64,000 nucleotides of DNA from the IMG/VR virus record IMGVR_UViG_3300020474_000993; one strand, given 5' to 3'. Both the position numbers and the translations under genes were made by a program. Below, piece by piece: positions 31,845-51,567 of the stretch (the stretch's first letter is position 1; every line of letters starts with the position of its first letter). The notes under the pieces were generated by a model. The model had not been told where the DNA came from, did no database searches, and worked only from the letters and a program-made list of their open reading frames with translations. The DNA is from a virus.

Positions 31845-31902
31845 AATCAATGGCTTACGATGGCAGAAAAGTGTTGACTTCTGCTATGAATTGTGCGATC
31901 AT
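31845..31902 (+). promoter_or_regulatory. Early promoter TTGACT-17-(TGc)GATCAT with an upstream IHF-like site AATCAATGGCTTA
   Basis: Same architecture as the promoters at 34410 and 51535. Confidence 0.7.
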
Positions 31903-31930
31903 ATACTTGTAATTGAGATTGAGAGAGAGT

Positions 31931-34360
31931 ATGGACATATCAGATAAATCACTACTTGCGAAACTCCTCGCCACTGAGGATGTTTCGATTGAACATAGGA
32001 ATGTACCTACCGCGTACTTCGATTTGAAGTCTAGGAAGATTGTACTTCCCAATTGGAAGGACATGCCTGATTTCTTGTATGATTTATTGATTGGTCATGA
32101 AGTTGGTCACGCTCTCGTAACTCCCGCTGAAGGTTGGCACTCTGCCTCTTCTAGTAAGGGTGCAAATTTCAAATCATTCTTGAATGTCGTAGAAGATGTT
32201 AGGAATGAGAGACTAGTTAAAATCAGATATCCAGGCTTGGTCAAGTCATTCTATAAGGGATATCAAATGCTTTACAAGAAAGACTTTTTCGGTCTTTCAA
32301 AATTACAAAAGACTCCCCAAGAATTACCACTAATTGATAGAATCAATCTTCACGCTAAGGTTGGTGCTTTCCTTACTCTACAATTCACTGCTGAGGAACA
32401 GGTCATACTTGACAAGTGTTTCGCTGCTGAGACTTGGGATGAGGTTGTCGCCATCGCTGAGGAATTATATGATTTCTCTAAGAATGAAGATGCGATGCAA
32501 GATCTTTTAGAAGAACAAGGCATGGGTATGCCTCAGTTTGGTGAAGATGAAGATGACTTTGACCAAGATGAAAATGGTGAATGGTCAGAGTCACCATATG
32601 GTGAAGAGGAGTCTGAAGAGGGCGACTCTGAGTCTGGTGAAGGTGAAGAGACTGAATCTGTAGAAGGTGAAGAAGGTGACGCTCAGTCTGGTGAAGGTGA
32701 AGAGACTGAAGAAGAAACTGAAGAGACTACTGCTTCTACTGAAGAAGATAAAAATACTGAAGACGCTGCTGAGTCTGGTGATAGACCAGAAGATGGCGAT
32801 ATCATGGAAGGTTCTGAAAATTCTGAGGGGTATAACCCCCATGATTTCGATGACGCGGAACCTAAGTCATTTACCGATGAGGCTTTTAGAGAGAATGAGG
32901 GCAACCTAGTAGAATCTGGCAAGACCAATGGTGTTGTTACTGCTACCATGCCTAAGTTCAAGTCTAAGTACTTTGTTTTCCCAACTACCGATGTTTGGCC
33001 TACTAAAGATTTTGAGTATGTTTGCGGTGGAAGGTATGATAACATTGCTGCTGGTTCTGCTCAAGATGTAGAGAAAGATTTACTTGACGAATTCATGAAA
33101 AGAAACAAGGCGTCAATTAATCAACTAGTTATGCAGTTTGAGATGAAGAAAAAAGCCACCCTACTAAGGAAGGCCAAAATCAATAAAACTGGTAAGTTGA
33201 ATGAAGATAAGTTGTGGGCATACAAGTTGACTGAAGACTTGTTCCTATCAAGTACTACTGTGCCAGATGGTCAGAACCATGGCATGATGATGTTTGTAGA
33301 CTTCTCTGGTTCAATGGGTAGACACATGGCTGGTACTATTGAACAGACACTAATTCAAGTTGCCTTCTGTAAAAAAGTTGGTATCCCATTTGATGTGTAC
33401 GGTTTTTCAAACTGTGCTAACTCTCTCCAAGGTGAGAAGTTCGGAAATGCTTCTAGGGGTTCTGCTTTCCAATCTTGTGAAGAGGGTGAGTTGTTTATTG
33501 AGTCTGGTGGGTTCGCTCTGCTTCAGTTGATATCTTCTGAATTGCCTCAGAGTGAGTACAATAGATGTTTCAAAAAGTTACTTGGTTACAAAACTTCATT
33601 TGAGTGGAGAGATATGAAACCAAGAATGGAAAGATACGATGTACCTTACCATCTTTATCTTGGTTCTACTCCGCTGTCAAGTTGTATGATAGTTGGTGCT
33701 AAGATTGCTAAGAAGTTCAAGGAAAGAAATAGAATTGAGGTTATGAACACAATCGTTCTTTCCGATGGTGGAAACACTTCTGATTTAGAAGTAATCTCGG
33801 ATGGTGAGTATGAAGAGAATGGTAGGTTCAGATATTCAAATGCCATTCAAAAAGAGTTTGGTCATGGATACGGCGAAGAAAGAACTGACATTGGTAAATT
33901 CCAATTGAGAGGCAACGGTCTGTCAGTTACCACTAACATCAAAGGGATGTATGGAACAAACTACGGTAGGGTCAGTTATGAAAGTGCTACTGCTGTTACT
34001 TTTGACTACTACAAAAAGTTTGTCGGTTCCAGAATAGTTCACTTCTTCTTAGTTGATAACAACATTAGAGAAGCGAGACAGGCGTGGACTGATATGACAG
34101 GTGAGTATGCCGAGTATGATGAAAACTTTGCTAAAGAAAAGGCAACTAACTGGAAAAACAATAACTTCATGTCTTGCCAGTCTAAGTTGGGAAGTGATGC
34201 TACCTTCATTCTGAAGGGTGCTAAGTCTCTTAATGAAGAGGCAGAGTTTGAAGTCAGTTCTGATAGTAAGGCTGACATTTTGAGAGGGTTCAAGAAATTC
34301 CAGAAAGGCAAGTCCAATTCCAGACAGTTCTTGAACAGATTTATTGATGAGGTCGCGTAA
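31931..34360 (+). CDS. CobT-like protein: HExxH peptidase-like domain, acidic linker, VWA domain
   Basis: HEVGH, DFSGSM MIDAS, LSDG; paired with the CobS-like ATPase. Confidence 0.85.
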   Translation: MDISDKSLLAKLLATEDVSIEHRNVPTAYFDLKSRKIVLPNWKDMPDFLYDLLIGHEVGHALVTPAEGWHSASSSKGANFKSFLNVVEDVRNERLVKIRYPGLVKSFYKGYQMLYKKDFFGLSKLQKTPQELPLIDRINLHAKVGAFLTLQFTAEEQVILDKCFAAETWDEVVAIAEELYDFSKNEDAMQDLLEEQGMGMPQFGEDEDDFDQDENGEWSESPYGEEESEEGDSESGEGEETESVEGEEGDAQSGEGEETEEETEETTASTEEDKNTEDAAESGDRPEDGDIMEGSENSEGYNPHDFDDAEPKSFTDEAFRENEGNLVESGKTNGVVTATMPKFKSKYFVFPTTDVWPTKDFEYVCGGRYDNIAAGSAQDVEKDLLDEFMKRNKASINQLVMQFEMKKKATLLRKAKINKTGKLNEDKLWAYKLTEDLFLSSTTVPDGQNHGMMMFVDFSGSMGRHMAGTIEQTLIQVAFCKKVGIPFDVYGFSNCANSLQGEKFGNASRGSAFQSCEEGELFIESGGFALLQLISSELPQSEYNRCFKKLLGYKTSFEWRDMKPRMERYDVPYHLYLGSTPLSSCMIVGAKIAKKFKERNRIEVMNTIVLSDGGNTSDLEVISDGEYEENGRFRYSNAIQKEFGHGYGEERTDIGKFQLRGNGLSVTTNIKGMYGTNYGRVSYESATAVTFDYYKKFVGSRIVHFFLVDNNIREARQAWTDMTGEYAEYDENFAKEKATNWKNNNFMSCQSKLGSDATFILKGAKSLNEEAEFEVSSDSKADILRGFKKFQKGKSNSRQFLNRFIDEVA
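32631..32710 (+). repeat. 26-bp direct repeat (32631-32656, 32685-32710) in the acidic linker
   Basis: AGTCTGGTGAAGGTGAAGAGACTGAA twice, 54 nt apart. Confidence 0.85.
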
Positions 34361-34442
34361 GTGGTTGAATTTAAAGGGAAAGAAAATGAAAATAATTTCG
34401 TTTTGGCCCTTGACATTTGCTCCCAAATATGGGATCATGATC
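34358..34442 (+). promoter_or_regulatory. Early promoter TTGACA-17-(TGg)GATCATGATC with an upstream IHF-like site
   Basis: Near-identical to 51483-51567. Confidence 0.75.
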
Positions 34443-34472
34443 AGGTAATTGAGAAAAAGTGAGAGGTAAATT

Positions 34473-35711
34473 ATGAGTGTAAAACAAAAAGAACAGTTCC
34501 TTCAGGCCCTTGCCGATGCGAACAATTCCGCGTCTGCCGTGTTCTCCAAAGCGGAGGCAATGCAGATTGCAAAATCAAGTGGGTTGAAAAATCCCATGTG
34601 GTTTTTTAAAGAGTGTAAAGTTGGTAGAAACCAATTTTCGCCAAACATGGCAACTCTAATGACAGTGGGTAATACTGCTCTCAAACCTGTCGCTGCTGAG
34701 GCGACTGCCCTTGAAGAGTCAGTATCTACCCTAGAACCGATTGAGACAATTCAATCGCAGCCATTAGATTCCAAGATTGTAAAACAGGCAAAACTTGCGG
34801 TGGAAATAGATAACTTAGTTCCAGATTCAGATAGTACTTATGTCCCATTTGGGTTTCATAAAGATTTGGTGAACATCATCAAGTCTGGTATGTTCTATCC
34901 TACATTTATTTGTGGTCTATCTGGTAACGGTAAGACTATGATGGTGGAACAAGTTTGTGCCAAACTCAAGAAAGAAGCTATTAGGGTTAACATCTCTATC
35001 GAAACCGATGAAGATGATTTAATCGGTGGCAATACTCTTGTCGATGGTAATGTTGTTTACAGGGAAGGCCCTGTTCTGACTGCCATGAAGAGGGGTGCGA
35101 TTCTTATCCTAGATGAGATTGATAGGGGTTCTAACAAGTTGATGTGCCTTCAGGCAATCCTTGAAGGGAAACCTTACTTCAATAAAAAGTCTGGTGAGGT
35201 CATCACGCCTGCTACTGGTTTCAATGTGATTGCTACTGCGAACACTAAGGGTCAAGGTTCCGATGACGGTAAGTTCATGGGTGCTCAAGTTCTTGATGAG
35301 GCGTTCCTAGAAAGGTTTGCTATCACGGTTGAACAAGAATATCCATCTAGTGTTCAAGAGAAAAAAATCATTATGAACAAGATGGGTGTCGCTGAGTGTG
35401 TCGATGAAGACTTCGCTGACAAGTTGGTCATGTGGGCTGACATAATCAGAAAGACTTTCTATGAAGGTGGAATCGATGAGTTGGTTTCTACCAGAAGATT
35501 GGAACACATTGTCAAGGCATATGCCATGTTCTCTGATAGACTCAAGGCAATTCAGTTGTGTGTCAATAGGTTTGATACCGACACCAAGACTGCCTTCATT
35601 GACCTTTACACTAAGGTTGATGCTGGTGCCTCTGTTGAAGAGTTGATGGACACTCCTACCGATGGTTCTACTGAAGAAACTTCTGAGGGGAATGACACTT
35701 ATGACTTCTAG
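34473..35711 (+). CDS. CobS-like MoxR-type AAA+ ATPase
   Basis: GLSGNGKT, ILDEID, TANTKG, FLERF, STRRL. Confidence 0.9.
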   Translation: MSVKQKEQFLQALADANNSASAVFSKAEAMQIAKSSGLKNPMWFFKECKVGRNQFSPNMATLMTVGNTALKPVAAEATALEESVSTLEPIETIQSQPLDSKIVKQAKLAVEIDNLVPDSDSTYVPFGFHKDLVNIIKSGMFYPTFICGLSGNGKTMMVEQVCAKLKKEAIRVNISIETDEDDLIGGNTLVDGNVVYREGPVLTAMKRGAILILDEIDRGSNKLMCLQAILEGKPYFNKKSGEVITPATGFNVIATANTKGQGSDDGKFMGAQVLDEAFLERFAITVEQEYPSSVQEKKIIMNKMGVAECVDEDFADKLVMWADIIRKTFYEGGIDELVSTRRLEHIVKAYAMFSDRLKAIQLCVNRFDTDTKTAFIDLYTKVDAGASVEELMDTPTDGSTEETSEGNDTYDF

Positions 35712-35979
35712 TCCAGACTATAAGTATAATGAAGGAGCTCTTATCAAAGAGCTCCAATCTTATATTGATAACACTTATGGTGAACATTATTCACAAAACA
35801 GTTTTCAGGCAACCGAGTTTATTATTGATGGTGGCCATGGTGAAGGGTTTTGTATCGGTAATATTTTGAAGTATGCTCAGAGATATGGCAAGAAAGACGG
35901 TTATAACCGCAAAGATTTAATGAAAGTATTGCACTATGCAATCATCGCCCTCCATGTACACGATTTGGAGCACGATTAA
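35701..35979 (+). CDS. DUF3310-like conserved protein
   Basis: HYS...GFCIGNILKYAQRYGKKDG..RKDL.K..HY. Confidence 0.75.
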   Translation: MTSSPDYKYNEGALIKELQSYIDNTYGEHYSQNSFQATEFIIDGGHGEGFCIGNILKYAQRYGKKDGYNRKDLMKVLHYAIIALHVHDLEHD

Positions 35980-35985
35980 CCAGTT

Positions 35986-36057
35986 TGCCCCCAGCGGGCA
36001 GTCGGGGCTTGATACGCCTCTCTCTTACTCTCTCACAAGAAGTATCAAGTTCCCGAC
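35986..36057 (+). ncRNA. Candidate structured RNA: small GC hairpin plus long stem with a CU-rich loop
   Basis: TGCCC/GGGCA; GTCGGG.CTTGATAC / GTATCAAG..CCCGAC enclosing GCCTCTCTCTTACTCTCTCACAAGAA. Confidence 0.55.
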
Positions 36058-36065
36058 AACTTTAT

Positions 36066-36073
36066 TATAAATA
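36066..36073 (+). promoter_or_regulatory. Late promoter TATAAATA
   Basis: Consensus upstream of 36106. Confidence 0.75.
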
Positions 36074-36105
36074 AGAGAGTAAGAAATAAATTAGAGGAAT
36101 GAACA

Positions 36106-36465
36106 ATGGCATATAGATTAACTTACACTAGTACTCGACCAGACACATCGGCAGATTGGTATTTCTTTTATGAAACCGCTGATGCTGGATTTGAGACTAA
36201 TGCGACACATTTTAGAAACTGGCTTGACGCGAGAAGTGATGTAACTGTTACTTTGACTGTGGCAGAAGATAATCTTTCTTTTAAATGGGAATTAGATTTT
36301 GCTGATGAAGCAGCTTACGATGCATTTGTAGTTGATAGGACTGCCCTGTTTGCAGCTGCTCCTTACAATGGCACTGCCCATTTACAGGAAACAGCTTACT
36401 TGGATTACTTATCTGCTAACAGTATGACTGGCGCTGAGACTCCAGCAGGCGGAGCAGAAGTCTAA
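36106..36465 (+). CDS. Late-expressed acidic hypothetical protein
   Basis: GAGGA RBS, late promoter. Confidence 0.65.
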   Translation: MAYRLTYTSTRPDTSADWYFFYETADAGFETNATHFRNWLDARSDVTVTLTVAEDNLSFKWELDFADEAAYDAFVVDRTALFAAAPYNGTAHLQETAYLDYLSANSMTGAETPAGGAEV

Positions 36466-36479
36466 AGTAAAATAAGGGG

Positions 36480-36509
36480 TTGACATTTGCCCCTAACAAA
36501 TGTTATTAT
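36480..36509 (+). promoter_or_regulatory. sigma70 promoter for gp45 (TTGACA-18-TATTAT, extended TG)
   Basis: Consensus-like. Confidence 0.65.
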
Positions 36510-36537
36510 ATGATGTTTAATTTGATTGAGGTATATT

Positions 36538-37188
36538 ATGAAACTATCTAAAACAACTTTGGAGTTGTTGAAAAACTACGCCACCATTAACACAAATCTT
36601 TTGGTTAAGGAAGGTAGTAGTTTGTCAACCGTGTCCGCTTCTAAGTCAATTCTTGCAAAGGGCACAATCGAAGAGAGCTTCCCACAGGAGTTCGCAATCT
36701 ATGATTTGAATCAATTCTTATCTCTGGTCACCATGAGTGATGATACTGAGATAGAATTTTCAGATGAATATCTAACCTGTAAGTCTGGGGCTGGTAGATT
36801 TAAATTCTACTATGCAGAACCATCTATTATTGTGGCCGCACCAGACAAAGAAATTGAACTTGATAATTTCTATCAGTTCAACATCACCAAAGAACAACTC
36901 AATACTATCTATAGGGCAGCAAGTGTAATCTCTGCACCTACTCTTAGTGTTGTTTCTAATACTGGTGGTGTAACAATGAGTGTTGGTGACCCGAATACTC
37001 CTAAGAGTAATTCATTCACCACAGACATTGGTCAGGCGAATGTACAATTCGATGCTAGACTTAGTATAGAGAATCTAAAAGTAATCGCAGATGATTATGA
37101 GGTTACTGTTAGTCAGAAGAAAGCTTTTAAGTTTTCAAATTCAAAAAGAACTTACTTTTTGGCACTAGAACCGAGTTCAAATATTTAA
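36538..37188 (+). CDS. gp45: Sliding clamp gp45
   Basis: MKLSK.TLELLKNYATIN, FAIYDLNQFLS, YFLALE. Confidence 0.93.
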   Translation: MKLSKTTLELLKNYATINTNLLVKEGSSLSTVSASKSILAKGTIEESFPQEFAIYDLNQFLSLVTMSDDTEIEFSDEYLTCKSGAGRFKFYYAEPSIIVAAPDKEIELDNFYQFNITKEQLNTIYRAASVISAPTLSVVSNTGGVTMSVGDPNTPKSNSFTTDIGQANVQFDARLSIENLKVIADDYEVTVSQKKAFKFSNSKRTYFLALEPSSNI

Positions 37189-37358
37189 TGGCTTGGGTTG
37201 AAGGAATGATTGCCGTTTATGGAATGATATTATCTTTCATGGCGGGATGGTTAATGCCGAGAGGTAATTTTATTAGAAAATTTCAGTTGTGGTTAACCAA
37301 AAGAATATACAATTGGTTGGCTCATGAAAAAGAAAAGATTAAGGAGAAAAGTAAATGA
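37188..37358 (+). CDS. Small membrane protein, 56 aa (MAWVEGMIAVYGMILSFMAGWLMPRG...)
   Basis: TAATG and ATGA coupling on both sides. Confidence 0.6.
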   Translation: MAWVEGMIAVYGMILSFMAGWLMPRGNFIRKFQLWLTKRIYNWLAHEKEKIKEKSK

Positions 37359-37969
37359 AGATTGAAGTTGGTCAAAAGTTACCAGAAGACATCACTTTCC
37401 ACATGAGGGTAAGGGATGAAAAAATGGTAGAGGCTGGTGATGAAAATCCATATCAGTGGCAACTAGTTAACTCAAGTGACTTGTTCAAGGACAAGAGGGT
37501 TGTACTGTTTGCTTTGCCTGGCGCATTTACTCCAACATGTTCAACATATCAATTACCAGATTATGATAACAACTATGAGTTGTTCAAAAGAAATGGTATT
37601 GATGAAGTATACTGCCTGTCTGTTAATGATAGTTTTGTTATGAACAAATGGGGTGATTGGTTAGACATTGATAATGTAAAACTAATTCCAGATGGAAGTG
37701 GTTTCTTTACAGAAGCTATTGGTGCTTTGGTGAAGAAAGACAACTTAGGATTTGGGCCAAGGTCTTGGAGATATTCAGTCCTTGTCAATGATGGGGTTGT
37801 GGAAGTAGCATTTGTCGAGGAAGGATGTGAAGACGATTGTCCTGCTGACCCATATGAAGTATCTGACCCACTGACCATGATGAATTACATTCAAACTGAA
37901 AGTCCTGTAGGACAACAATATGAGTTAAATCTTCAAGATGGTGCTGGAACAGACGAAACATTTGCATAA
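37355..37969 (+). CDS. Peroxiredoxin (Prx5/type II)
   Basis: LPGAFTPTCS, SVNDSFVM, RSWRYS. Confidence 0.93.
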   Translation: MKIEVGQKLPEDITFHMRVRDEKMVEAGDENPYQWQLVNSSDLFKDKRVVLFALPGAFTPTCSTYQLPDYDNNYELFKRNGIDEVYCLSVNDSFVMNKWGDWLDIDNVKLIPDGSGFFTEAIGALVKKDNLGFGPRSWRYSVLVNDGVVEVAFVEEGCEDDCPADPYEVSDPLTMMNYIQTESPVGQQYELNLQDGAGTDETFA

Positions 37970-38753
37970 AGTTGATTATGATTTAAAACCTTTATCGAAG
38001 GAACTCGCAATCGATTTTATACAGACGCATCATTATTCACCGATGATGCCTAAACTAACAAAGCATTATCTAGGATGTTTTCTCAATGGTGAATTAGTAG
38101 GTGTATTGACTCTAGGCTGGGGAACTCAACCTAGACAGACAATCAATAAAATGTTTACTGGTCTGGAGTCAAAAGATTATTGGGAGATTGGTAAGATGTG
38201 CATGACAGATGAAATGCCAACCAACTCCGAATCACAAATGATATCTCAATCAATAAAATGGATAAAGGAAAATACACCAGAGGTATCGTTCCTTTATACA
38301 ATGGCAGATGGTATCATGGGTAAATGTGGATATGTATATCAGGCAAGTAATTTTCTTTATGGTGGACAATACTTCACTCAAGTATATGAGATAAATGGAG
38401 AGAAGGTTCATCCGAGAGCTACAAGAAAATTATGCGAAGAGAACGCAAGGTTCTCTGGCAAAGACAGGATTTTTTGGTTGACTTCAGACTTTATGAAAGA
38501 GAAGGGAATCAAAAAAATAGAGGGATATATGTTTAGATATATCTTTCCGCTGAATAAGAAGGCAAAAAAATTATTAAAAAAATCAAATATGGAATGGACT
38601 AGGGTATACCCCAAAGACCACAATCTAAAATGGTTTGACAAAACATCCAATCCGAAGTTTGAAATTGAACAACCCCACTTCACATATGAAGAAGTTCTAC
38701 ACAACGCGAGAAACATATCTGGTGGTGGGGCATCTTTAAGAGGTATATTATGA
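37938..38753 (+). CDS. Mom-like DNA adenine-modification enzyme (GNAT fold)
   Basis: HHYS, NSES..IS, TMADG...GYVYQASNFLY.G. Confidence 0.75.
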   Translation: MVLEQTKHLHKVDYDLKPLSKELAIDFIQTHHYSPMMPKLTKHYLGCFLNGELVGVLTLGWGTQPRQTINKMFTGLESKDYWEIGKMCMTDEMPTNSESQMISQSIKWIKENTPEVSFLYTMADGIMGKCGYVYQASNFLYGGQYFTQVYEINGEKVHPRATRKLCEENARFSGKDRIFWLTSDFMKEKGIKKIEGYMFRYIFPLNKKAKKLLKKSNMEWTRVYPKDHNLKWFDKTSNPKFEIEQPHFTYEEVLHNARNISGGGASLRGIL

Positions 38754-39517
38754 GCAAAATTGTTTTAGTATCTGGTGGATTTGACCCACTACATAAGGGA
38801 CACCTTGACCTATTGAAAGAAGCTAAGAAGATGGGTGACCATCTATCGGTAGGTCTCAATAGCGATGCGTGGTTAACTAGAAAGAAGGGGTCACCGTTCA
38901 TGTCACAATGGGACAGAATGGATATGTTGATGGAATTAGAATGTGTTGACCATGTAGTTCCTTTCAATGATGATGACGATACTGCCAAAGACTTTATAGA
39001 AAAAGCATTAGGCACATGGGGAATAGACCACAAGTTTTTATTTGTGAATGGTGGTGACAGGACAGAAGATAATATTCCAGAGATGGAACTGCGAGAAAAG
39101 TTTTCTCATGCTCATTTAGAATTTGTTTTTGGTGTTGGTGGAGATAAAACTTATTCTAGTAGTTTGGTAAACAATGTAGAAAGAGCTTGGGGTGACTATA
39201 AAGTTATTCACGAGGAACAAACTGCTAAGGTAAAAATATTGAATATTGATATTGGTAAAAGTATTAGTTACCAAAGACATTTTTATCGTGGAGAAATCTG
39301 GCATATCGTAAATGGTATGGCAATGATTAAAACCAGCAAAGGTAGGTTAGAGAATTATACATACGACTACTTGACTTCTGGTCAACACTTTAGTATAATA
39401 CCCTACGAATGGCATCAAGTGACAAATGTGGGTAATGAACCCCTAAAGATAATTGAAATTCAACATGGTTCTTATGTCGAAGAAGATGATATTGAACGCG
39501 AGGAGATAGTTCATTGA
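38750..39517 (+). CDS. Cytidylyl/adenylyltransferase (RfaE-like) fused to a mannose-6-P isomerase-type cupin
   Basis: GGFDPLHKGH, NGGDR; R.WG.Y, SYQRH..R.E.W, IIEIQ.G...EDDI.R. Confidence 0.85.
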   Translation: MSKIVLVSGGFDPLHKGHLDLLKEAKKMGDHLSVGLNSDAWLTRKKGSPFMSQWDRMDMLMELECVDHVVPFNDDDDTAKDFIEKALGTWGIDHKFLFVNGGDRTEDNIPEMELREKFSHAHLEFVFGVGGDKTYSSSLVNNVERAWGDYKVIHEEQTAKVKILNIDIGKSISYQRHFYRGEIWHIVNGMAMIKTSKGRLENYTYDYLTSGQHFSIIPYEWHQVTNVGNEPLKIIEIQHGSYVEEDDIEREEIVH

Positions 39518-39705
39518 AGAAGAAAGGTATTAAGGAAAGACGAATAGTCGCCTTAAAAAATTTGGAGAAGTCAAAGTTTACCCCAAAACAGGTAAAGTCT
39601 GGCAAGTTTGTAAAAGGTAAGCCTGAGATGGTAGACCGTTCTGAAGACAACTGGAACATCAAAAAAGATTACCAGATTGAGGTGCTTAAGAAAAGAGTAC
39701 AGTAA
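39514..39705 (+). CDS. Small basic hypothetical protein
   Basis: Coupled start and stop; Lys-rich. Confidence 0.55.
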   Translation: MKKKGIKERRIVALKNLEKSKFTPKQVKSGKFVKGKPEMVDRSEDNWNIKKDYQIEVLKKRVQ

Positions 39706-39707
39706 TC

Positions 39708-42803: not shown

Positions 42804-42855
42804 AAAAACCATAAATACTTTTCATATTAATTAACAAAATTATGAAGGTATTATC

Positions 42856-43272
42856 ATGGTGGATGATTTTTTTGACATTGATTTTCCAGATTACAAACCA
42901 GTAGAAGTATTATTAGAAAAGGAAGATGACTTCCTAAAGGTTAGGGAAACTTTGTCTCGTATTGGAGTGGCATCAAAGAAAGACAAGACATTGTATCAGT
43001 CTTGCCATATTCTCCATAAACAGGGTAGGTATTTTATAACTCATTTCAAAGAACTTTTTGCTCTTGATGGCAAAGAAGCAGATTTGACAGATAATGATTT
43101 AAAAAGAAGAAACGCAATATCCAAACTGCTGAGTGATTGGGGTTTGGTAAAACTTCTTGATAAATCAGTTGAAGAAGACATGGCTCCATTGAGTCAGATA
43201 AAGATTTTGTCCTTCAAAGAGAAGGATGAATGGTCGCTCGTTACTAAATATAATATCGGGCGAAAACGATAA
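42856..43272 (+). CDS. regA: Translational repressor RegA
   Basis: DFLKVRETLSRIGVAS, LYQSCHILHKQGRY.I.HFKELF. Confidence 0.97.
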   Translation: MVDDFFDIDFPDYKPVEVLLEKEDDFLKVRETLSRIGVASKKDKTLYQSCHILHKQGRYFITHFKELFALDGKEADLTDNDLKRRNAISKLLSDWGLVKLLDKSVEEDMAPLSQIKILSFKEKDEWSLVTKYNIGRKR

Positions 43273-43296
43273 CCCTAAACGCACAGAAGGAGAGCT

Positions 43297-43683
43297 ATGA
43301 AGGGAAAAGTGGCGGCTATGGTCGCATTGGTTTTTATGATGGCAATACCTCTTGAATCCATCGCTGAAGAGGAAAAAAACAGGATTCACACACTCTGTAA
43401 ACAAGAGATTAAACAAAACTATTCCGACTCACTCGCAAGAATAAGACTCAATGGATTTGCTAAACAAAACCGCAAACCTATTGCAAAATATCGCGTAGCG
43501 ATTGAGGGAGGACAGACTTTGTTCCTAAGATGTGGTATTGACCCCACTTCTGGTTCCATTATGGTCTGGGATAGAGATGATTTTTACAGAATTGCTAAAC
43601 TGAGTGAAGGTCTTCAAAAGAAAATCAATGAAGAACTTGCAATCATTATGCATGGGATGGTTTTAAAATTAAACAACGGATAA
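43297..43683 (+). CDS. Hypothetical exported protein
   Basis: Signal-peptide-like N-terminus; two Cys. Confidence 0.55.
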   Translation: MKGKVAAMVALVFMMAIPLESIAEEEKNRIHTLCKQEIKQNYSDSLARIRLNGFAKQNRKPIAKYRVAIEGGQTLFLRCGIDPTSGSIMVWDRDDFYRIAKLSEGLQKKINEELAIIMHGMVLKLNNG

Positions 43684-43698
43684 AATTAAATTTTTGCC

Positions 43699-43736
43699 CT
43701 TGATTTTTGGAAAAAAGTCCCCATATATTATAAATA
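43699..43736 (+). promoter_or_regulatory. sigma32-type promoter CTTGAT-14-CCCCATAT plus late promoter TATAAATA (43729-43736)
   Basis: Matches the RpoH consensus upstream of hsp20. Confidence 0.7.
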
Positions 43737-43742
43737 ACAGTA

Positions 43743-43797
43743 GTAGATGCTCGGGTGAGGTCTACACTTTAACTCGCTTAATAAGGAGAAAACTATG
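43743..43797 (+). promoter_or_regulatory. ROSE-like RNA thermometer in the hsp20 5' UTR
   Basis: Hairpin 43743-43765, then CUCGCUU pairing with SD AAGGAG with a bulged G. Confidence 0.65.
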
Positions 43798-44247
43798 AAT
43801 ACTTTAAGCACACAAGCGCACTGGGATAATCTTGTCTCAGCGTTTCCACAAATCCGCAGACAATTCGTTGGTTTCGATAGGGTAGTTGATTTACTCAATC
43901 AGAACTTTGAAGTATCTGTGCAAAATTTCCCACCATTTAATATAGAAAAACTAGATGATGAAAACTACGAGATTCAAATGGCTCTCGCTGGTTACAAAGA
44001 ATCTGATTTAGATATTACTGTGGAAGATGGCACTCTTACTGTAGAAGGTGGCCAAGAGTCGGGGGAAGACGAATCAAATTTTATTCACCAAGGTATAGCA
44101 CAAAGAAAATTCCGTAAGGTATGGAGTCTAGCTGACACTGTAATAGTGAAAGATGCTAAACTCACTGAGGGAATTCTTAGAATATCCTTGGAGAATCAAA
44201 TCCCAGAGGAGAAGAAACCTCAAACAATCAAGATTAAAACTAAATAA
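43795..44247 (+). CDS. Small heat-shock protein Hsp20 (IbpA-like)
   Basis: FPPFNIE, ALAGY, FIHQGIAQRKF, GIL.ISLE..IPEEKKP. Confidence 0.95.
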   Translation: MNTLSTQAHWDNLVSAFPQIRRQFVGFDRVVDLLNQNFEVSVQNFPPFNIEKLDDENYEIQMALAGYKESDLDITVEDGTLTVEGGQESGEDESNFIHQGIAQRKFRKVWSLADTVIVKDAKLTEGILRISLENQIPEEKKPQTIKIKTK

Positions 44248-44258
44248 ATAGTTTTATC

Positions 44259-44285
44259 GGGGGGCGATATTTGCCCCCCATTTTT
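44259..44285 (+). terminator. Intrinsic terminator after hsp20
   Basis: GGGGGGC...GCCCCCC followed by ATTTTT. Confidence 0.85.
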
Positions 44286-44299
44286 GAAAAGGAAATATT

Positions 44300-44707
44300 A
44301 TGACAAAGAAAAAGAAAGTAGTGAAGGAAGTAAAGATTCCTAATCCAGAAATGGAAGTCACCGAAGAAGAACTTGAGAAACAACAACTTCCACCAGCTTC
44401 ATTGGTGGGTGTAAAGTCTGCTGGTACGGCTGAAATTATCTGTTACTTACAGAAAGATGATGAGGGCGGTAGATATATTTTATCAAACCCAGCTCAGATA
44501 TCTTATTTGCCTGTTGAAGGAAAACAGGGACAATTTAAAATTGCATTTGTTCCACAAACTCCATCAAGTACTGGTACTTTATTTGTACCGTATGGCAAAC
44601 TTGAATACTTGTTTGAAGTCAAACCAGATTTGGCTAAAGAGTATCAAGACAAGTTTGAACACACCGCAGTAACACAGACAAAGAAAAAACCAAAATTCAC
44701 TGGTTAA
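44300..44707 (+). CDS. Hypothetical protein (possible Sm-like core)
   Basis: Conserved position between hsp20 and gp43. Confidence 0.55.
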   Translation: MTKKKKVVKEVKIPNPEMEVTEEELEKQQLPPASLVGVKSAGTAEIICYLQKDDEGGRYILSNPAQISYLPVEGKQGQFKIAFVPQTPSSTGTLFVPYGKLEYLFEVKPDLAKEYQDKFEHTAVTQTKKKPKFTG

Positions 44708-44804
44708 AAAATTGCTCGAAAAAGGTAGCGCTTTTTATATCAAAAATAGCGCAAAAAATAAATCCTCGGCCAAAAACGCCTGTAGGATTTTCAAAAAATA
44801 ATGC

Positions 44805-44833
44805 TTGACTTCTGATGTCTGTTGTGTTATTAT
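44805..44833 (+). promoter_or_regulatory. sigma70 promoter for gp43 (TTGACT-17-TATTAT, extended TG)
   Basis: Consensus-like, downstream of an A-tract region. Confidence 0.7.
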
Positions 44834-44860
44834 ATCTCTAAATGAAAAATCGGTTTTATT

Positions 44861-47362
44861 ATGTCTAACTTCTATACCTATGCGTGGCAATATGGAAATT
44901 CAATCCTTACTCGTGGAGTGAGGAATGGTAAGCGCTTTACTGAGAAACATCCATTCAATCCTACATTGTATGTTAGAAGCAATGAGGAATCTGAATTCAA
45001 AAACATCGATGGTCATTATCTAAAACCAATTCAGTTTGGTGACAACGGTGATGCTAAAGAGTTCCTAGACAAATATTCTAAAGTAGATAACTATCCTATA
45101 TACGGTCAAACTGATTTGACTTATCAGTATATAGCTTCTATGTATCCCCATAATATCGAATTTGACCTTAGTAAGATGAATATCTGGTCAATAGATATTG
45201 AGACAACAGCAGAACATGGTTTCCCAGACACGGAAAATCCTATTGAAGAAATCCTGTTGATTACTATGGTAAACAATTACACCAAAGAAATATTTACATG
45301 GGGTTCTGGTGAGTGGAAGCCTGGCGAAGAGACCAAAGACCTACCAGTTACATATACATATTGTTCCGATGAGTTTGACTTGTTGGAAAAGTTTATGACA
45401 TGGTGGGCGCAAGATTATCCAGATGTAGTTACTGGTTGGAATCATGAACTGTTTGATATGCCTTACTTAGTTGGTAGGATTGACAGACTATTTGGTGACT
45501 CAGCTAAAAACAATCTTAGTCCATTCGGTATGACTAGGAAGAAAACTGTTCGCGGTCATAACAGAGAGTTATTGAAGACTGACATCAAGGGTGTCATTCA
45601 ACTTGACTATATGGATTTGTACAAAAAGTTTACTTACACCTTCCAAGAAAGTTATCGACTTGATTACATTGCTGAAGTAGAACTAGGTAAGAAGAAACTG
45701 GAATCTGGATTTGAAACATTCCGCGAGTTCTACGAGAATGATTGGAATAGGTTTATTGACTATAACATTATCGATACTGTTTTGGTTGACGAACTTGATG
45801 ACAAGATGAAATTCTTGGAACTTATTATCACTATGGGATATGACTGTAAATGTAACTACAATGATATCTTTTCATCTGTGAGAACTTGGGATTGTTTGTT
45901 ATATAACTTCTTACTTGAAAAGAACATTATGATTCCTCAGAAGAAGGAACACTTCTCCAAGGGATTCGCTGGTGGTTATGTCCAAGACCCGAAAGTGGGT
46001 AAGTACAAGTGGGTGGTATCAGTTGATGCGACTTCCCTATATCCATCTATCATCATGCAACACAATCTATCACCAGAGATGTTGGCAGAGGGACACAAAC
46101 CCCTAGACTGTACAGTTGATAGTATTCTGGAAAGGAAACACTCAACTAAAAAATTGGTGGAGGCAGACTTATCGATGGCTGCTAATGGTTACTTGTTTGG
46201 TAGAACATCTCAAGGATTCATGGCAGAAATTACTCAAAAGTTTTTTGACGATAGACAGAAGTACAAAAAACTCATGAAGAAAGCAGAACAAGAGTATGAG
46301 GATACAAAGAATCCTAAACTCAAAAATGATATCGCCAAGTTTAACAACTTCCAGATGGCAAGAAAGATTCAATTGAACTCTCTCTTTGGTGCGATAGGTA
46401 ACAAATGGTTCAGATATTTTGATGAAAGGATTGCAGAGGCAATCACATTGAGTGGACAACTTATTATCCGTGACACAGGTAAAGCGGTGGATGAGTTTCT
46501 AAACAAGTTTCTTGGCACAGAAGATGAAGTCTATTCTTTCTATACTGATACAGATTCTTGTTATGTTACACTGGACAAGATGGTAGAACTTCACATGAAG
46601 GATAAGTCTCAAGAAGAGATAATTGATATCCTTGATAAGTTTACGGAAGATAAACTAGTACCAGCAATCAATGGTCGTATGGCAGAGTTGGGTGACTACA
46701 TGAATGTATTCCAACCCAAGATAGATTTCAAACGCGAGGCAATTGCCGATACAGGTATATGGGTTGCAAAGAAACGATACGCATTGAATGTATGGGACAA
46801 TGAAGGTGTTAGATATCACGAACCCCATCTAAAAGTTATGGGTCTGGAGATTGTAAGGTCTTCCACACCAGCACCAGTTCGTTCAAGTCTCAAAAAGGCA
46901 GTTGAGTTATGTTTGAACAAAGATGAAAAAGAATTACAGGATTTCGTTGAGAATACATGGCAGGCATTTAGTAAGATGTCTCCAGAAGAAATCGCTTTCC
47001 CACGCGGTTGTAATAACATAGATAAGTATTCATCACGCGAAACAGTTTACACCAAGGGAACTCCGATGCATGTTCGGGGCGCATTGGTCTACAATCACTT
47101 GCTTAGGACTCAGAAACTAGAGAAAAAATATCAAGTTATCCAAGATGGTGACAAGATTAAGTTTCTCTATCTGAAGGAACCTAATCATGTGAGAGAAAAT
47201 ACCGTAGCGATGAATGGTCTAATGCCAAAAGAGTTTGACTTACATCGATACATAGATTATGAAACAATGTTTGAGAAAGCATTTATTGACCCATTGAATA
47301 CTATTGTTACTAGTTTGGATTGGAAGACTAGACCAGTGGCAACATTGGAGTCGTTATTTTAG
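44861..47362 (+). CDS. gp43: DNA polymerase gp43 (family B)
   Basis: DIET exonuclease, DATSLYPS, KIQLNSLFG, YTDTDS. Confidence 0.98.
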   Translation: MSNFYTYAWQYGNSILTRGVRNGKRFTEKHPFNPTLYVRSNEESEFKNIDGHYLKPIQFGDNGDAKEFLDKYSKVDNYPIYGQTDLTYQYIASMYPHNIEFDLSKMNIWSIDIETTAEHGFPDTENPIEEILLITMVNNYTKEIFTWGSGEWKPGEETKDLPVTYTYCSDEFDLLEKFMTWWAQDYPDVVTGWNHELFDMPYLVGRIDRLFGDSAKNNLSPFGMTRKKTVRGHNRELLKTDIKGVIQLDYMDLYKKFTYTFQESYRLDYIAEVELGKKKLESGFETFREFYENDWNRFIDYNIIDTVLVDELDDKMKFLELIITMGYDCKCNYNDIFSSVRTWDCLLYNFLLEKNIMIPQKKEHFSKGFAGGYVQDPKVGKYKWVVSVDATSLYPSIIMQHNLSPEMLAEGHKPLDCTVDSILERKHSTKKLVEADLSMAANGYLFGRTSQGFMAEITQKFFDDRQKYKKLMKKAEQEYEDTKNPKLKNDIAKFNNFQMARKIQLNSLFGAIGNKWFRYFDERIAEAITLSGQLIIRDTGKAVDEFLNKFLGTEDEVYSFYTDTDSCYVTLDKMVELHMKDKSQEEIIDILDKFTEDKLVPAINGRMAELGDYMNVFQPKIDFKREAIADTGIWVAKKRYALNVWDNEGVRYHEPHLKVMGLEIVRSSTPAPVRSSLKKAVELCLNKDEKELQDFVENTWQAFSKMSPEEIAFPRGCNNIDKYSSRETVYTKGTPMHVRGALVYNHLLRTQKLEKKYQVIQDGDKIKFLYLKEPNHVRENTVAMNGLMPKEFDLHRYIDYETMFEKAFIDPLNTIVTSLDWKTRPVATLESLF

Positions 47363-47370
47363 GAGATACT

Positions 47371-48429
47371 ATGAGTACATTAGATAAATTAAAAAAGAAC
47401 TCAACGATAAAACAAACTGAAATTTTATCCAAGAGTAAATTTCTGAACAACAAAGATGTTGTACAGACAACTGTTCCCGCTTTGAATGTGGCGTTGAGTG
47501 GTAAATTGGATGGTGGACTTGCTACAGGTCTAACAGTTTTTGCTGGCCCATCTAAACATTTCAAAACTGCTTTTGCCATGTTATTGTCAAAATCTTATTT
47601 GGATAAATACGAAGATGGAGTGGTGTTATTTTATGATTCAGAGTTCGGCGCTCCTCAAGGATATTTCGACAGTTTCGGCATAGACACAGATAGAGTTATT
47701 CATACACCTGTCACAGACATAGAACAACTCAAACACGATGTGATGTCCCAACTCCAAGGTATTGAAAGAGGTGACCGTGTAATTATAATTGTGGACTCAG
47801 TAGGTAACCTTGCCTCGCGTAAAGAAGTAGAAGATGCGATAGATGGTAAGTCAGTTGCCGATATGACTCGTGCAAAACAAATGAAATCCCTGTTTCGTAT
47901 GGTGACTCCTCACCTAACAATCTTAGATATTCCAGCGGTGGTTGTAAACCACACATACAAAGAAATCGGTTTGTTCCCCAAAGATGTAGTGTCTGGTGGA
48001 ACTGGTGTTTACTACAGTGCTGATAATATCTTTATTATAGGTAGACAACAAGAAAAACAAGGGAAAGATGTTGTAGGATACAACTTTATTATCAATGTCG
48101 AGAAGTCAAGATTTGTTCGGGAGAAGTCCAAGATACCCATTGAAGTTACATGGGAAGGTGGCATCAGCAAGTGGTCTGGTCTCCTTGATATGGCTCTTGA
48201 GTCTGGTCATGTTGTCAAACCATCAAACGGATGGTATGCGAAATCTGATGACCCAGATGCGCCGAAATTCAGACTTAAAGATACATACACAAAAGACTTT
48301 TGGATACCTATCCTTAGTGAAAAAAGTTTCATCCAGTGGATTGAGGATAGATATTTAATGTCAGCAGACTCCATCATGCAGTCTGAAGTAAGCGAAGAGG
48401 ATATTAAGGATGCTTACTCCGAAGTGTGA
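47371..48429 (+). CDS. uvsX: Recombinase UvsX
   Basis: GPSKHFKT, YDSEFG, DSVGNL. Confidence 0.96.
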   Translation: MSTLDKLKKNSTIKQTEILSKSKFLNNKDVVQTTVPALNVALSGKLDGGLATGLTVFAGPSKHFKTAFAMLLSKSYLDKYEDGVVLFYDSEFGAPQGYFDSFGIDTDRVIHTPVTDIEQLKHDVMSQLQGIERGDRVIIIVDSVGNLASRKEVEDAIDGKSVADMTRAKQMKSLFRMVTPHLTILDIPAVVVNHTYKEIGLFPKDVVSGGTGVYYSADNIFIIGRQQEKQGKDVVGYNFIINVEKSRFVREKSKIPIEVTWEGGISKWSGLLDMALESGHVVKPSNGWYAKSDDPDAPKFRLKDTYTKDFWIPILSEKSFIQWIEDRYLMSADSIMQSEVSEEDIKDAYSEV

Positions 48430-48586
48430 TAAATGTGGGACTAGTATCGATGAAGAAAATGATGCTGGAATATGTTTTCGACATGCTGACGGAGATGCAT
48501 ATCTCTGTGAGAAATGTGTAGAAGAAGTGAAACGAGATTTTTATAATGAGATTAGAACAAACAATACTATCGAATCTGATACATAA
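48410..48586 (+). CDS. Small zinc-finger-like protein, 58 aa (MLTPKCDKC...LCEKC...)
   Basis: Two CxxC motifs, GAGG upstream; bridges uvsX and gp41; not in the ORF track. Confidence 0.6.
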   Translation: MLTPKCDKCGTSIDEENDAGICFRHADGDAYLCEKCVEEVKRDFYNEIRTNNTIESDT

Positions 48587-49925
48587 CGAAGATTATGTCA
48601 GACAAGCAATTGCACATTTAAAGGCATCTTATTTCCTAGATGCTGAGTATCGTGAGGTATTCAGATGTATTCGTGATTATGTCACGGCATACAATTCCCC
48701 ACCACAAGCAAGCGCGCTTAAAATTGCACTACAAGATAACAGAAAGATTACTGAAGACCTTTACGAAAAATGTGAGGAACTTATTAATGGTCTTGGTGAA
48801 TATGAGGTTGATAACAGATGGTTGATTGACCAAACAGAAAAATTCTGTAAGGACAAGGCAGTTTACAATGCTATCATGCAATCTATTCAGATTATCGATG
48901 GACAGGATAAAACATATTCAGTAGATTCTCTGCCTTCTATATTGTCAGATGCTCTTAGTGTTGGTTTTGATAATAACATTGGTCACGATTATGTTGGTGA
49001 CGCGGAAGCACGATTTGATTTCTATCACAGGCACGAAGAAAAATTACCATTCGACTTAGAATATTTCAACAAGATTACTGAAGGTGGATTGATAAACAAG
49101 ACACTCAATATTGCTCTTGCTGGTACAGGTGTGGGTAAATCTCTTTTCATGTGTCATGTGGGTGCAGCCATGATTGCTCAAGGTAAGAATGTTTTGTATA
49201 TCACATTAGAGATGGCAGAGGAAAGAATCGCTGAAAGAATCGATGCGAACATGATGGATGTTTCCATGCAAGATTTGAGAGACCTATCCAAGTCTATGTA
49301 CACAGACCGTATTAAGAAAATTCAAAACAAAGTTGATGGCAGATTGATTGTTAAAGAATATCCAACTGCAACTGCCCATGCTGGTCATTTCAGAGCACTT
49401 CTTGAAGAGTTGAAACTCAAACAAAACTTTTCTCCAGACATAATTTTTATCGATTATCTAAATATTTGTGTGAGTCAACGACTCCGAAATAATGCTGGTG
49501 CAAACTCATATACCATAGTCAAGGCAATTGCTGAGGAACTAAGGGGACTGGCAGTAGAGTATGATTTACCAATAGTATCCGCAACCCAGACCACGCGAGG
49601 TGGTTTTAACAACAGTGATGTTGACTTGACAGATACTTCAGAAAGTTTTGGTTTGCCTGCTACTGCTGACTTGATGTTTGCTCTTATAAGTACAGAGGAA
49701 TTAGAACAACAAGGTCACATGATGGTTAAACAATTGAAGAATAGATATAGTGACCCGACAAGAAACAAACGATTTATGATTGGAGTTGATAGGGCGAAGA
49801 TGAGATTGTATGATTTAGAAGATGCTCAACAAAATCTAGTAGACTCTGGACAGGTAGATGTACAGCCAGTTTTTGACCAAGGTGCCTTTGGACAAAGATT
49901 AGGCTTGGGGGATATTAAAGTATAA
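48546..49925 (+). CDS. gp41: Replicative helicase gp41
   Basis: AGTGVGKS, IDYLNI, SESFGLPATAD, KQLKNRY. Confidence 0.97.
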   Translation: MRLEQTILSNLIHNEDYVRQAIAHLKASYFLDAEYREVFRCIRDYVTAYNSPPQASALKIALQDNRKITEDLYEKCEELINGLGEYEVDNRWLIDQTEKFCKDKAVYNAIMQSIQIIDGQDKTYSVDSLPSILSDALSVGFDNNIGHDYVGDAEARFDFYHRHEEKLPFDLEYFNKITEGGLINKTLNIALAGTGVGKSLFMCHVGAAMIAQGKNVLYITLEMAEERIAERIDANMMDVSMQDLRDLSKSMYTDRIKKIQNKVDGRLIVKEYPTATAHAGHFRALLEELKLKQNFSPDIIFIDYLNICVSQRLRNNAGANSYTIVKAIAEELRGLAVEYDLPIVSATQTTRGGFNNSDVDLTDTSESFGLPATADLMFALISTEELEQQGHMMVKQLKNRYSDPTRNKRFMIGVDRAKMRLYDLEDAQQNLVDSGQVDVQPVFDQGAFGQRLGLGDIKV

Positions 49926-49928
49926 ATA
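49921..49928 (+). promoter_or_regulatory. Late promoter TATAAATA
   Basis: Consensus immediately before the lysis cassette. Confidence 0.75.
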
Positions 49929-49933
49929 GGGCT

Positions 49934-50317
49934 ATGATTAGTAAAGTATTATTAGGTGTAATATTAGCTGGAGGCTTTGTTGGGTATTTGTACTACACAA
50001 ATACGCAAGCAGAACTTATTGAGCTCCGAGAATATAATATGGCGATGGAATTACAAGTCGCTACACAAAATGATACCATAGATAAGATGTCTAAACAATA
50101 CGAAACACAGGCAAAAGCGCTTGGTGAGTTGACTTCAAAGAATGCTGTTATTGAAGCAGAGATGACAAGATACCTTGACATTTTCCGCAGACATGACCTT
50201 AGTAAACTTGCAGCTGCTAAACCAGGCCTTATTGAACCAAGGGTGAACAATGCGACAAAAGATGTATTCGACAGTCTCGAAACTGATTCCAGTTTTGAGT
50301 TTGATACTGATAATTAA
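49934..50317 (+). CDS. Putative i-spanin
   Basis: N-terminal TM helix plus coiled coil; KPGLIE..VN; overlapped by a lipoprotein gene. Confidence 0.7.
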   Translation: MISKVLLGVILAGGFVGYLYYTNTQAELIELREYNMAMELQVATQNDTIDKMSKQYETQAKALGELTSKNAVIEAEMTRYLDIFRRHDLSKLAAAKPGLIEPRVNNATKDVFDSLETDSSFEFDTDN

Positions 50318-50681
50318 CGGTTGTAGTTTAATACCAAAACAACCGCGTGAGGTAGAAATCAAAACGATAGAGGTGCGTGTGCCTATACAGCATCCTGTAT
50401 ATCCTCGACCAATAGATATGAAAGAACCAAAGTGGTATGTTGTATCTGACAAAAACTTAGACGAATTCCTAGTTAAAATAGAAAAAGAATCTGGAAAGAT
50501 GGTCTTTATGGCAATGTCTGTACCAGATTACGAATTAATGGCGTATAATCTCCAAGAGATTAAACGATATGTAAAAGAAACCAAAGAAGTGATAGTGTAT
50601 TACCGAACCGTTATGTCTGATGATGAAGAAAAAGAAAAAGTCACAGGAGAGAAAGATGACGGAAGAGGAAACAAAAACTAA
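50250..50681 (+). CDS. Putative o-spanin lipoprotein
   Basis: Lipobox-like LIINGC, Pro-rich segment, overlaps the i-spanin 3' end. Confidence 0.7.
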   Translation: MRQKMYSTVSKLIPVLSLILIINGCSLIPKQPREVEIKTIEVRVPIQHPVYPRPIDMKEPKWYVVSDKNLDEFLVKIEKESGKMVFMAMSVPDYELMAYNLQEIKRYVKETKEVIVYYRTVMSDDEEKEKVTGEKDDGRGNKN

Positions 50682-50982
50682 AATATTACCAGCAGATGTA
50701 AATGGTGATGGTAAAGTTGATGACGAAGAAAAGGCGATGTATATGGAATTTAAGCGTAGAGAGCTTGAAGACCAAGATGCAATGCGAGACAGTCAACGCA
50801 AGATGGCATGGTTTGCTTTGGGTGGTATGTTATTATATCCATTCGCCGTTGTACTCGCTGTGTTATTTGGATTGGAACAAGCAAGTAAGATTCTAGGTGA
50901 TATGGCAGCTACTTATTTTGTTGCTGTTGCTGGTATCGTAGCAGCTTTCTTTGGGGCTCAGGCTTTCCAAAAAGGCAAATAA
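50656..50982 (+). CDS. Putative holin with an EF-hand-like loop
   Basis: DVNGDGKVDDEE plus two TM helices; adjacent to spanins. Confidence 0.5.
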   Translation: MTEEETKTKILPADVNGDGKVDDEEKAMYMEFKRRELEDQDAMRDSQRKMAWFALGGMLLYPFAVVLAVLFGLEQASKILGDMAATYFVAVAGIVAAFFGAQAFQKGK

Positions 50983-51063
50983 TTTAAGAGGTGTAAAATC
51001 AAATCTTCTCCGAATCAGTGGTTTCAGATTCCCCTTACAATATCAGAAGAACTGAAGGAGGAA

Positions 51064-51498
51064 TTGCTCACATTCGATATAGCTAATGCTAAAAATTATT
51101 TTATACACGAACCAGAAGAAAACCATAGACTAGAATTTTTAGAAATATCATTGGACATGATTAAAGAGGTAGCTGATAAGTTCATGGTATCACCTACTAA
51201 GGCTACACTGGTTGCTATTGCTCCCACCGATATTGTTCCATGGCATGTCGATGGTCTGTCCCACGATTACCATAGACCAGCGATAGCTTGTTTTCCACTA
51301 TTTCCCAATTCTAAGACCTATGAATGTACTGAGTACAGGGATGGATTTGTGCCATATTGTGACTCTTACATCTTCAACACGCAAGAAGAACACAGGGCAA
51401 AAGCACTGGATACGCGAAGATTAAACCTACAAATATGGTTCCAACAGGACTTTAAGGAACTAAAAAAATTGTCCGATGAAGGTAAGTTGTTGATTTAA
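51064..51498 (+). CDS. 2OG-Fe(II) oxygenase/cupin-like protein (start uncertain, possibly 50998)
   Basis: PWHVD...FNTQEEH...R.NLQI. Confidence 0.55.
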   Translation: MLTFDIANAKNYFIHEPEENHRLEFLEISLDMIKEVADKFMVSPTKATLVAIAPTDIVPWHVDGLSHDYHRPAIACFPLFPNSKTYECTEYRDGFVPYCDSYIFNTQEEHRAKALDTRRLNLQIWFQQDFKELKKLSDEGKLLI

Positions 51499-51567
51499 CT
51501 AGGGATTTATTTTCACTTTTTTTCGCTTTGGCCCTTGACATTTGGGGTAAAATATGAGATCATGATC
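51483..51567 (+). promoter_or_regulatory. Early promoter TTGACA-17-(TGa)GATCATGATC with an upstream IHF site
   Basis: TAAGTTGTTGATT is the reverse complement of WATCAANNNNTTR; near-identical to 34410. Confidence 0.75.

Follow-up and report, generated by a model that had tools for sequence, protein, structure and literature searches.

GATC is purged from an uncultured marine T4-like phage yet retained in the -10 region of a predicted promoter class that may be methylation-sensitive

The 64,000-nucleotide stretch of the IMG/VR virus record IMGVR_UViG_3300020474_000993 analysed here (the window) comes, judged by its gene content, from a marine T4-like myovirus that has not been cultured. Nearly all GATC has been purged from it, and the only GATC outside its genes lie in the -10 region of three predicted sigma70 promoters that are conserved in related genomes. 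Taken together, the comparisons give good support to the view that the GATC word is under positive constraint at these promoters, in a genome from which it is otherwise removed. Several readings of this constraint can be weighed, and the best of them, to which a probability of about 0.4 is assigned, is that the GATC-class promoters are methylation-sensitive in the manner of the IS50 and IS10 promoters.

Depletion of GATC

GATC occurs 16 times in the window (37.8% GC), compared to 214 copies expected from base composition and 240 expected from a Markov model (observed/expected = 0.07). An exact count placed eleven sites within open reading frames (ORFs), at 719, 3987, 13467, 17169, 18015, 20023, 26899, 30260, 32501, 40821, and 62856, and the other five outside ORFs, at 31897, 34433, 34439, 51558, and 51564. 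The purge is the result of selection acting through synonymous codon choice. Ahead of a codon that begins with C, Asp is encoded by GAT 7 times and by GAC 144 times (850 vs 371 in other contexts), Ile following a codon that ends in G is never encoded by ATC (0/247), and Ser following xGA is encoded by TCN twice and by AGY 21 times (911 vs 355 in other contexts).

Two IMG/VR relatives with 86–88% DNA identity to the window, G001 (137 kb, 83% complete) and G005 (161 kb, 91% complete), were analysed in full, and the comparison included a more distant relative (G008, ~74% DNA identity) and two complete relatives that are not purged (G002 and G003). GATC is present 27 times in G001 (459 expected), 34 times in G005 (555 expected), and 38 times in G008 (218 expected). 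The purge was also seen in contigs L001–L011, but not in L012–L017, G002, or G003. As in other cases of site avoidance, the observed/expected ratio is far under one beyond the effect of composition, and the loss is synonymous and lineage-specific.

A promoter class with GATC in the -10 region

The five sites outside ORFs belong to three predicted promoters on the + strand. Promoter 1 (31874–31902) has the -35 element TTGACT (31874–31879), a 17-bp spacer ending in TGc, and the -10 hexamer GATCAT (31897–31902), with one GATC. Promoter 2 (34410–34442) has TTGACA, a 17-bp spacer ending in TGg, GATCAT at 34433–34438, and a second GATC in the discriminator (34439–34442), and promoter 3 (51535–51567) is built alike, with TTGACA, a 17-bp spacer ending in TGa, GATCAT at 51558–51563, and a second GATC at 51564–51567. 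The class can be written TTGACw-N14-TGn-GATCAT(GATC), with TGn directly 5' of the hexamer in 3/3, and all three have the features predicted for a sigma70 extended -10 promoter (TTGACA-like -35, 17-bp spacer, TGn, A-11, and T-7). GATC occupies -12 to -9 in every case and additionally -6 to -3 in promoters 2 and 3, where both GATC together form the perfect 10-bp palindrome GATCATGATC. About nine other strong promoters of the form TTGACw-N17/18 were found in the window, and these have TATAAT, TACAAT, TATACT, or TATTAT as the -10 box.

By chance, ~0.03–0.05 GATC are expected in the -10 windows of the window's promoters, and the Poisson probability of three or more promoters with such a site is ~1e-5. 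A promoter scan anchored on the -35 and the gene start, and blind to the -10, recovered GATC in the -10 window of 3/9 promoters in the window, 5/14 in G001, and 6/17 in G005, compared to 0/21 in G003 and 0/22 in G002 (0/43 in total; Fisher test, 6/17 vs 0/43, p = 2.5e-4). Promoters hold 5/16 of the residual GATC in the window, 10/27 in G001, and 12/34 in G005. An earlier note on this DNA, made by a model from the letters alone, had counted about 14 GATC by eye against roughly 200 expected at 37% GC, had remarked that Asp-Pro and Asp-Gln are written with GAC, and had placed five GATC in three TTGAC(A/T)-17-TGnGATCAT promoters while assigning TA-type -10 boxes to the other sigma70 promoters; the depletion is real, the remaining details agree with the exact analysis, and the positional enrichment that the note proposed to check was found.

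Conservation in related genomes

Orthologous promoters were gathered by way of the downstream protein, again blind to the -10 box. Before the CobS-like gene (promoter 2), TTGACw-N17 leads into a -10 box in nearly all of ~70 marine T4-like contigs; the box is part of GATCATGATC in the purged close relatives L001–L007, TGtCATGATCA in L010/L011, and TATAAT, GATAAT, TAGAAT, or TAAGCT in every non-purged lineage. Before the gene for a DUF7717-like protein (promoter 3), GATCATGATC is present in 16/16 purged-clade loci and TATAAT-type boxes are present in ~60 others, with exceptions among non-purged lineages in L252/L256 (TGtCATGATC) and L249 (TATATTGATC). G008 has GATCATGATC at two promoters and TGtCATGATCAT before an 815-aa gene, the ortholog of the gene that follows promoter 1; TGtCATGATCAT represents a 3-bp register shift of the promoter 1 box in which GATC is still present. 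Further GATC-class promoters in G001 and G005 precede a phrog_10415 gene, a 64-aa gene, and two small-gene operons (TGtCATGATC), and these genomes also have one TAGAATGATC promoter and one promoter with GATC in the spacer.

Constraint on the GATC word

Across 32 unique promoter variants from five families, the GATC words are constant, unlike the spacer, the n of TGn, and the nucleotide that follows the motif, all of which vary. GATCAT of promoter 1 is invariant in six unique variants, and GATCATGATC is invariant in four promoter families. At two promoters the box has undergone a 3-bp register shift, with GATC remaining in the -10 region. Promoter GATC were kept in all three genomes in 5/6 cases, compared to 3/15 for the alignable non-promoter GATC (p = 0.014, or 0.07 when counted per promoter). 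CCGG is also depleted in the window (10 vs 45–78 expected), and because its survivors are all coding, promoter retention is peculiar to GATC.

The bases that complete GATC are non-consensus for sigma70. Only two of the four (G/C)AT(G/C)AT hexamers, GATCAT and CATGAT, are found in real promoters of the clade, where CATGAT is followed by C in every instance; the clade has GATGAT, CATCAT, and CATGAT with a following A only as coding-sequence coincidences that lack TGn. Relaxed scans of IMG/VR, in which either the initial G or the final C of GATCATGATC could vary, recovered neither NATCATGATC nor GATCATGATN from any member of the clade, and the extra matches were from unrelated, non-purged contigs and resembled coding-sequence coincidences. 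The G-to-T change at -12, by which GATC would be lost and the box improved, was never seen among the clade variants or in the relaxed scans. A constraint of this kind at promoters needs an explanation even if methylation is not what reads the word.

One such explanation would leave GATC itself without a function. The sites would be tolerated because they lie in weak, TG-dependent -10 boxes, where occupancy and melting by the polymerase would shield GATC from a host nuclease. Every member of the GATC class is of the extended -10 type and departs from consensus at two positions, and in phiX174 the transcription machinery has been suggested to protect GATC from MutH (PMC5014478). This would not explain, however, the exclusive use of weak boxes that bear GATC, never GATGAT, CATCAT, or CATGAT with a base other than C, nor that 0/43 promoters of the non-purged relatives are of this kind in genomes where GATC is free, nor the lack of the G-to-T change, which would abolish the site and give a better box at once, and we consider it unlikely. 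A second possibility is that one or two GATC-bearing cassettes were copied to several genes, like the mobile early-promoter cassettes of T4-type phages, and that the purge has not reached them so far. The promoters do fall into pairs with common upstream flanks, that of the CobS and DUF7717 genes and that of the 815-aa and 'MAYV' genes. However, the sites persist at ~74% DNA identity (G008) and at 80% CobS protein identity (L010/L011), coding GATC turn over to the point that 3/15 are kept even among 87%-identical genomes, and independent CATGATC promoters stand before other genes, which together make an origin of this sort very improbable.

A possible class of methylation-sensitive promoters

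A host enzyme that recognises GATC is implied by the purge, which does not in itself indicate the type of enzyme. Possible causes are a GATC restriction-modification (R-M) system, for which site avoidance is described (PMC6286503), and the pairing of Dam with MutH that has been put forward for enterobacteriophages (PMC5014478, which cites McClelland 1984, and Deschavanne and Radman 1991). In metagenome-assembled genomes (MAGs) of marine prokaryotes no motif is methylated more often than GATC (PMC8919816), so a methylating host is plausible, and a GATC-methylated clade has been reported among viral MAGs of marine Caudovirales (PMC9516812).

If the promoters are methylation-sensitive, a host GATC-reading system (an R-M pair, or Dam with MutH) would drive the purge, the methyltransferase of that system would mark the few remaining GATC, and the simplest reader would be RNA polymerase itself, sensing N6-methyladenine. 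The non-template A at -11 is the base that sigma flips out to nucleate melting, as seen in structures of sigma70 promoters. In GATCAT, the methylatable adenines would be this A-11 and the template-strand A opposite T-10, and a second GATC would add two adenines in the melting region, such that the melted segment would contain all four adenines of GATCATGATC. The methylation state could in this way govern the ease of opening at these weak, TG-dependent promoters, with an effect that may be on-when-methylated or on-when-unmethylated, and fully methylated virion DNA would be transcribed differently from newly replicated DNA that is unmethylated or hemimethylated. The consequence would be a replication-coupled timing of one set of early/middle genes (CobT-like, CobS-like, DUF7717, and others), achieved without a phage methyltransferase. 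Taken to its full extent, host GATC methylation would time a dedicated class of promoters (~1/3 of the sigma70-type promoters), as a clock coupled to replication, in a phage that has no methylase, with the mark confined to the -10 and discriminator by the purge and transcription decided by whether the template is virion-derived or newly replicated; this stronger form is somewhat unlikely.

The precedents for methylation-sensitive promoters are IS50 (Tn5) T1 and IS10 pIN, sigma70 promoters in which GATC likewise overlaps the -10; Dam methylation lowers their output, so that replication transiently changes activity (PMC4265352). The IS50 transposase promoter contains two overlapping GATC, is Dam-sensitive, and increases ~8-fold in activity when the sites are mutated (PMC4265352); IS10 pIN is the second Dam-sensitive case, as cited in that article (Roberts 1985). 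Unlike the phage promoters, these are single transposon promoters in a Dam+ host with a normal density of GATC, as opposed to a promoter class (~1/3 of the early promoters) in a purged lytic phage. The earlier note had argued for a methylation-gated class from the Dam control of such promoters, and this precedent is sound. The note would have been refuted by a motif not conserved in relatives, and the promoters are kept in ~87%-identical relatives and in purged-clade orthologs; the parts of its proposal that stand are a purge by selection and a conserved GATC word that is not due to chance. The phage dam that it suggested looking for was not found, neither as Dam nor as another DNA methyltransferase family in the 83% and 91% complete relatives, and the methylation would have to be that of the host.

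Several observations weigh against methylation-sensitive promoters. Neither G001 nor G005 contains a match to PF02086, PF05869, PF01555, PF02384, or PF00145 (methyltransferase families that cover D12 Dam, T4-type Dam, N6_N4, N6_Mtase, and C5) and, though this concerns readers as much as writers, no member of the DpnII, MutH/Sau3AI, or SeqA families was found in either genome. Genes for a GATC reader or writer are likely absent from the phage lineage, judging from these profiles, and any such protein would therefore be host-encoded or novel. A search for the host using the major capsid protein (MCP) against 185,579 species genomes returned only misbinned phage contigs (≤69% identity). The argument from A-11 would fail if the R-M methylase that causes the purge makes 5-methylcytosine or N4-methylcytosine. 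The promoter with its leader is highly conserved as a whole, and the invariance of GATC is only moderately above that of its surroundings; in addition, the promoters form two pairs with shared upstream flanks and would have fewer independent origins than their count. In the cultured phage Melnitz, 0/23 GATC are in a TTGAC-N17 promoter, and the L039/L040/L073 lineage is purged without promoter GATC. On this distribution the device appears to be lineage-specific and not a general companion of the purge. Finally, the register of GATC relative to the hexamer varies (-12 to -9, -9 to -6, and -6 to -3), a pattern no less compatible with a reader that binds GATC than with RNA polymerase being affected directly.

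Such a reader could be a DNA-binding protein, from the phage or the host, that recognises GATC, or GATCATGATC as a dimer, overlaps the -10, and represses or activates the class, with methylation optional. A variable register would be expected of a competing binder, GATCATGATC is a perfect palindrome that is invariant in four promoter families, and an upstream IHF consensus at two of the three window promoters suggests architectural control. Against this, the palindrome that is present at 34433 and 51558 is absent from the single-site members (GATCAT at 31897 and the CATGATCA forms), which leaves the 4-bp word as the only element common to all, and the relatives yielded no SeqA, MutH, or DpnII family and no candidate for the regulator. 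A binding protein is held to be an unlikely source of the constraint.

Two other proposals were discarded. A phage nuclease that spares its own GATC-poor genome was rejected, as 16–34 GATC survive and a nuclease family of this kind was not detected. The proposition that a GATC purge is always accompanied by promoter GATC was rejected on account of Melnitz and the L039/L040/L073 lineage.

Other depleted words

ACGT is absent from the window (0 vs 61–214 expected), from G001 (0 vs 154), and from G005 (0 vs 173), a purge that is stronger than that of GATC in all three. The ACGT purge is the younger of the two, because G008 and L010/L011 are GATC-depleted yet not ACGT-purged. Other marine T4-like lineages have purged other 4-mers, with CCGG, ACGT, or GATC reduced to zero in different groups of L012–L080. 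Among cultured phages, Melnitz (MZ577097.1; L327+L326+L328+L329) has 23 GATC compared to 498 expected, and HTVC008M (L325) has 24 compared to 130 in the first 50 kb, the portion that was counted. GAATC is also scarce in HTVC008M (5 vs 40), and CGCG in Melnitz (1 vs 61), which has a gene for an HhaI-like methylase.

The virus, its promoters, and neighbouring features

Profile searches of the window identified T4-type genes for the tail sheath, portal, scaffold, major capsid, UvsW, gp46, DNA polymerase B, UvsX, and gp41. The MCP is 69.5% identical to that of the Methylophilales (OM43) phage Melnitz, 68% to that of pelagiphage HTVC008M, and ~62% to those of cyanomyoviruses, making Melnitz and HTVC008M the nearest cultured relatives by this protein (68–70%). 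The window DNA had no nucleotide-level match among phage records, and a BLAST search of the promoter and surrounding 5 kb against 50,697 phage records returned nothing relevant and no cultured phage with the promoter. The phage is a common one, with DNA near-identical to the window present in marine metagenomes from at least seven studies. Four marine metatranscriptome runs from three studies contained contigs with ≥99% identity to parts of 31700–51690, the longest of which matched the Hsp20 region (43498–44343); one assembled RNA contig begins at 34468, though assembled contigs this short and patchy cannot reveal 5' ends.

Promoter 1 is followed by a gene of ~810 aa (31931–34360, +) that belongs to phrog_459 ('peptidase') and is a CobT/VWA-like partner of the next gene. 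That gene, behind promoter 2 (34473–35711, +), encodes a CobS/MoxR-like AAA+ ATPase of 412 aa (AAA_5, CbbQ_C), and promoter 3 is followed by the gene for the DUF7717-like protein (51595–51945, +). Orthologs and purine-rich ribosome sites favour ATG 31931 as the likely start of the first gene, in place of the TTG at 31913 given by the ORF tool, and ATG 51595 as the likely start of the third, in place of GTG 51583; the G005 ortholog of the first gene begins MDITSK. The comparison set of ordinary sigma70-type promoters (spanning 19306–44840) has -35 elements that start on the + strand at 19306 (-10 box TATAAT), 22397 (TACAAT), 23038 (TATACT), 36480 (TGtTATTAT), 39371 (TATAAT), 41341 (TATACT), and 44805 (TATTAT), and on the - strand at 22363.

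Upstream of the GATC-class promoters, perfect matches to the IHF consensus WATCAANNNNTTR are located at 31845–31857 (+) and 51483–51495 (-), 29 and 52 bp 5' of the -35 of promoters 1 and 3, respectively. No IHF consensus was present within 130 bp upstream of eight other promoters that were checked, including the GATC-class promoter at 34410. The CobS and DUF7717 promoters share the upstream flank 'tttggcccTTGAC' (34396–34415 and 51521–51540), and the promoters of the 815-aa gene and the 'MAYV' gene in G001 and G005 share 'gaggcagctttt.cTTGAC'. These common flanks suggest that the pairs are copied promoter cassettes.

The Hsp20 gene (43795–44247, +) is preceded by a sigma32-type heat-shock promoter (43699–43726; CTTGATT-N13-CCCCATAT). 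A gain of GATCAT in the Hsp20 promoter of G001 was dropped as evidence, as the box is the -10 of this sigma32-type promoter (CCCCATnT); it reads CCCCAGATCAT in G001, a lineage-specific GATC outside the sigma70 class, and TATATT and TATTAT in the window and G005. Together with the IHF consensus sites, the sigma32-type promoter gives a hint of a proteobacterial host. A host call from the MCP matches was rejected, as the MAGs to which the matching contigs had been assigned represent a dozen unrelated phyla.

Relation to known systems and implications

GATC avoidance and Dam-sensitive promoters are each already known, and the combination of a near-complete purge with a conserved promoter class that has GATC in the -10 was not found in the literature that was searched. 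To our knowledge, no positively retained promoter subset has been described for the avoidance of restriction sites, in enterobacteriophages or otherwise. In T7, phiX174, and other phages with site avoidance, as here, a 4-bp palindrome is strongly under-represented in a synonymous and lineage-specific manner (PMC5014478; PMC6286503). Melnitz and HTVC008M are likewise T4-like, marine, and GATC-depleted, but Melnitz lacks GATC in TTGAC-N17 promoters and purges CGCG rather than ACGT. The MamA promoters of Mycobacterium tuberculosis resemble the phage promoters in that sites of N6-adenine methylation overlap the -10 and affect expression, and differ in motif, organism, and direction, with methylation favouring expression and no phage involved (PMC3701705).

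Little is understood of the way in which T4-like phages that infect ocean bacteria keep early and later transcription by the host polymerase apart. If the methylation-sensitive reading is true, a promoter class that senses the methylation of its own -10 would be a timing device that requires no protein of its own. The genome would also be a natural example of two opposed selective pressures acting on one 4-base word, which would be removed where a host enzyme can harm the phage and kept where it is informative.

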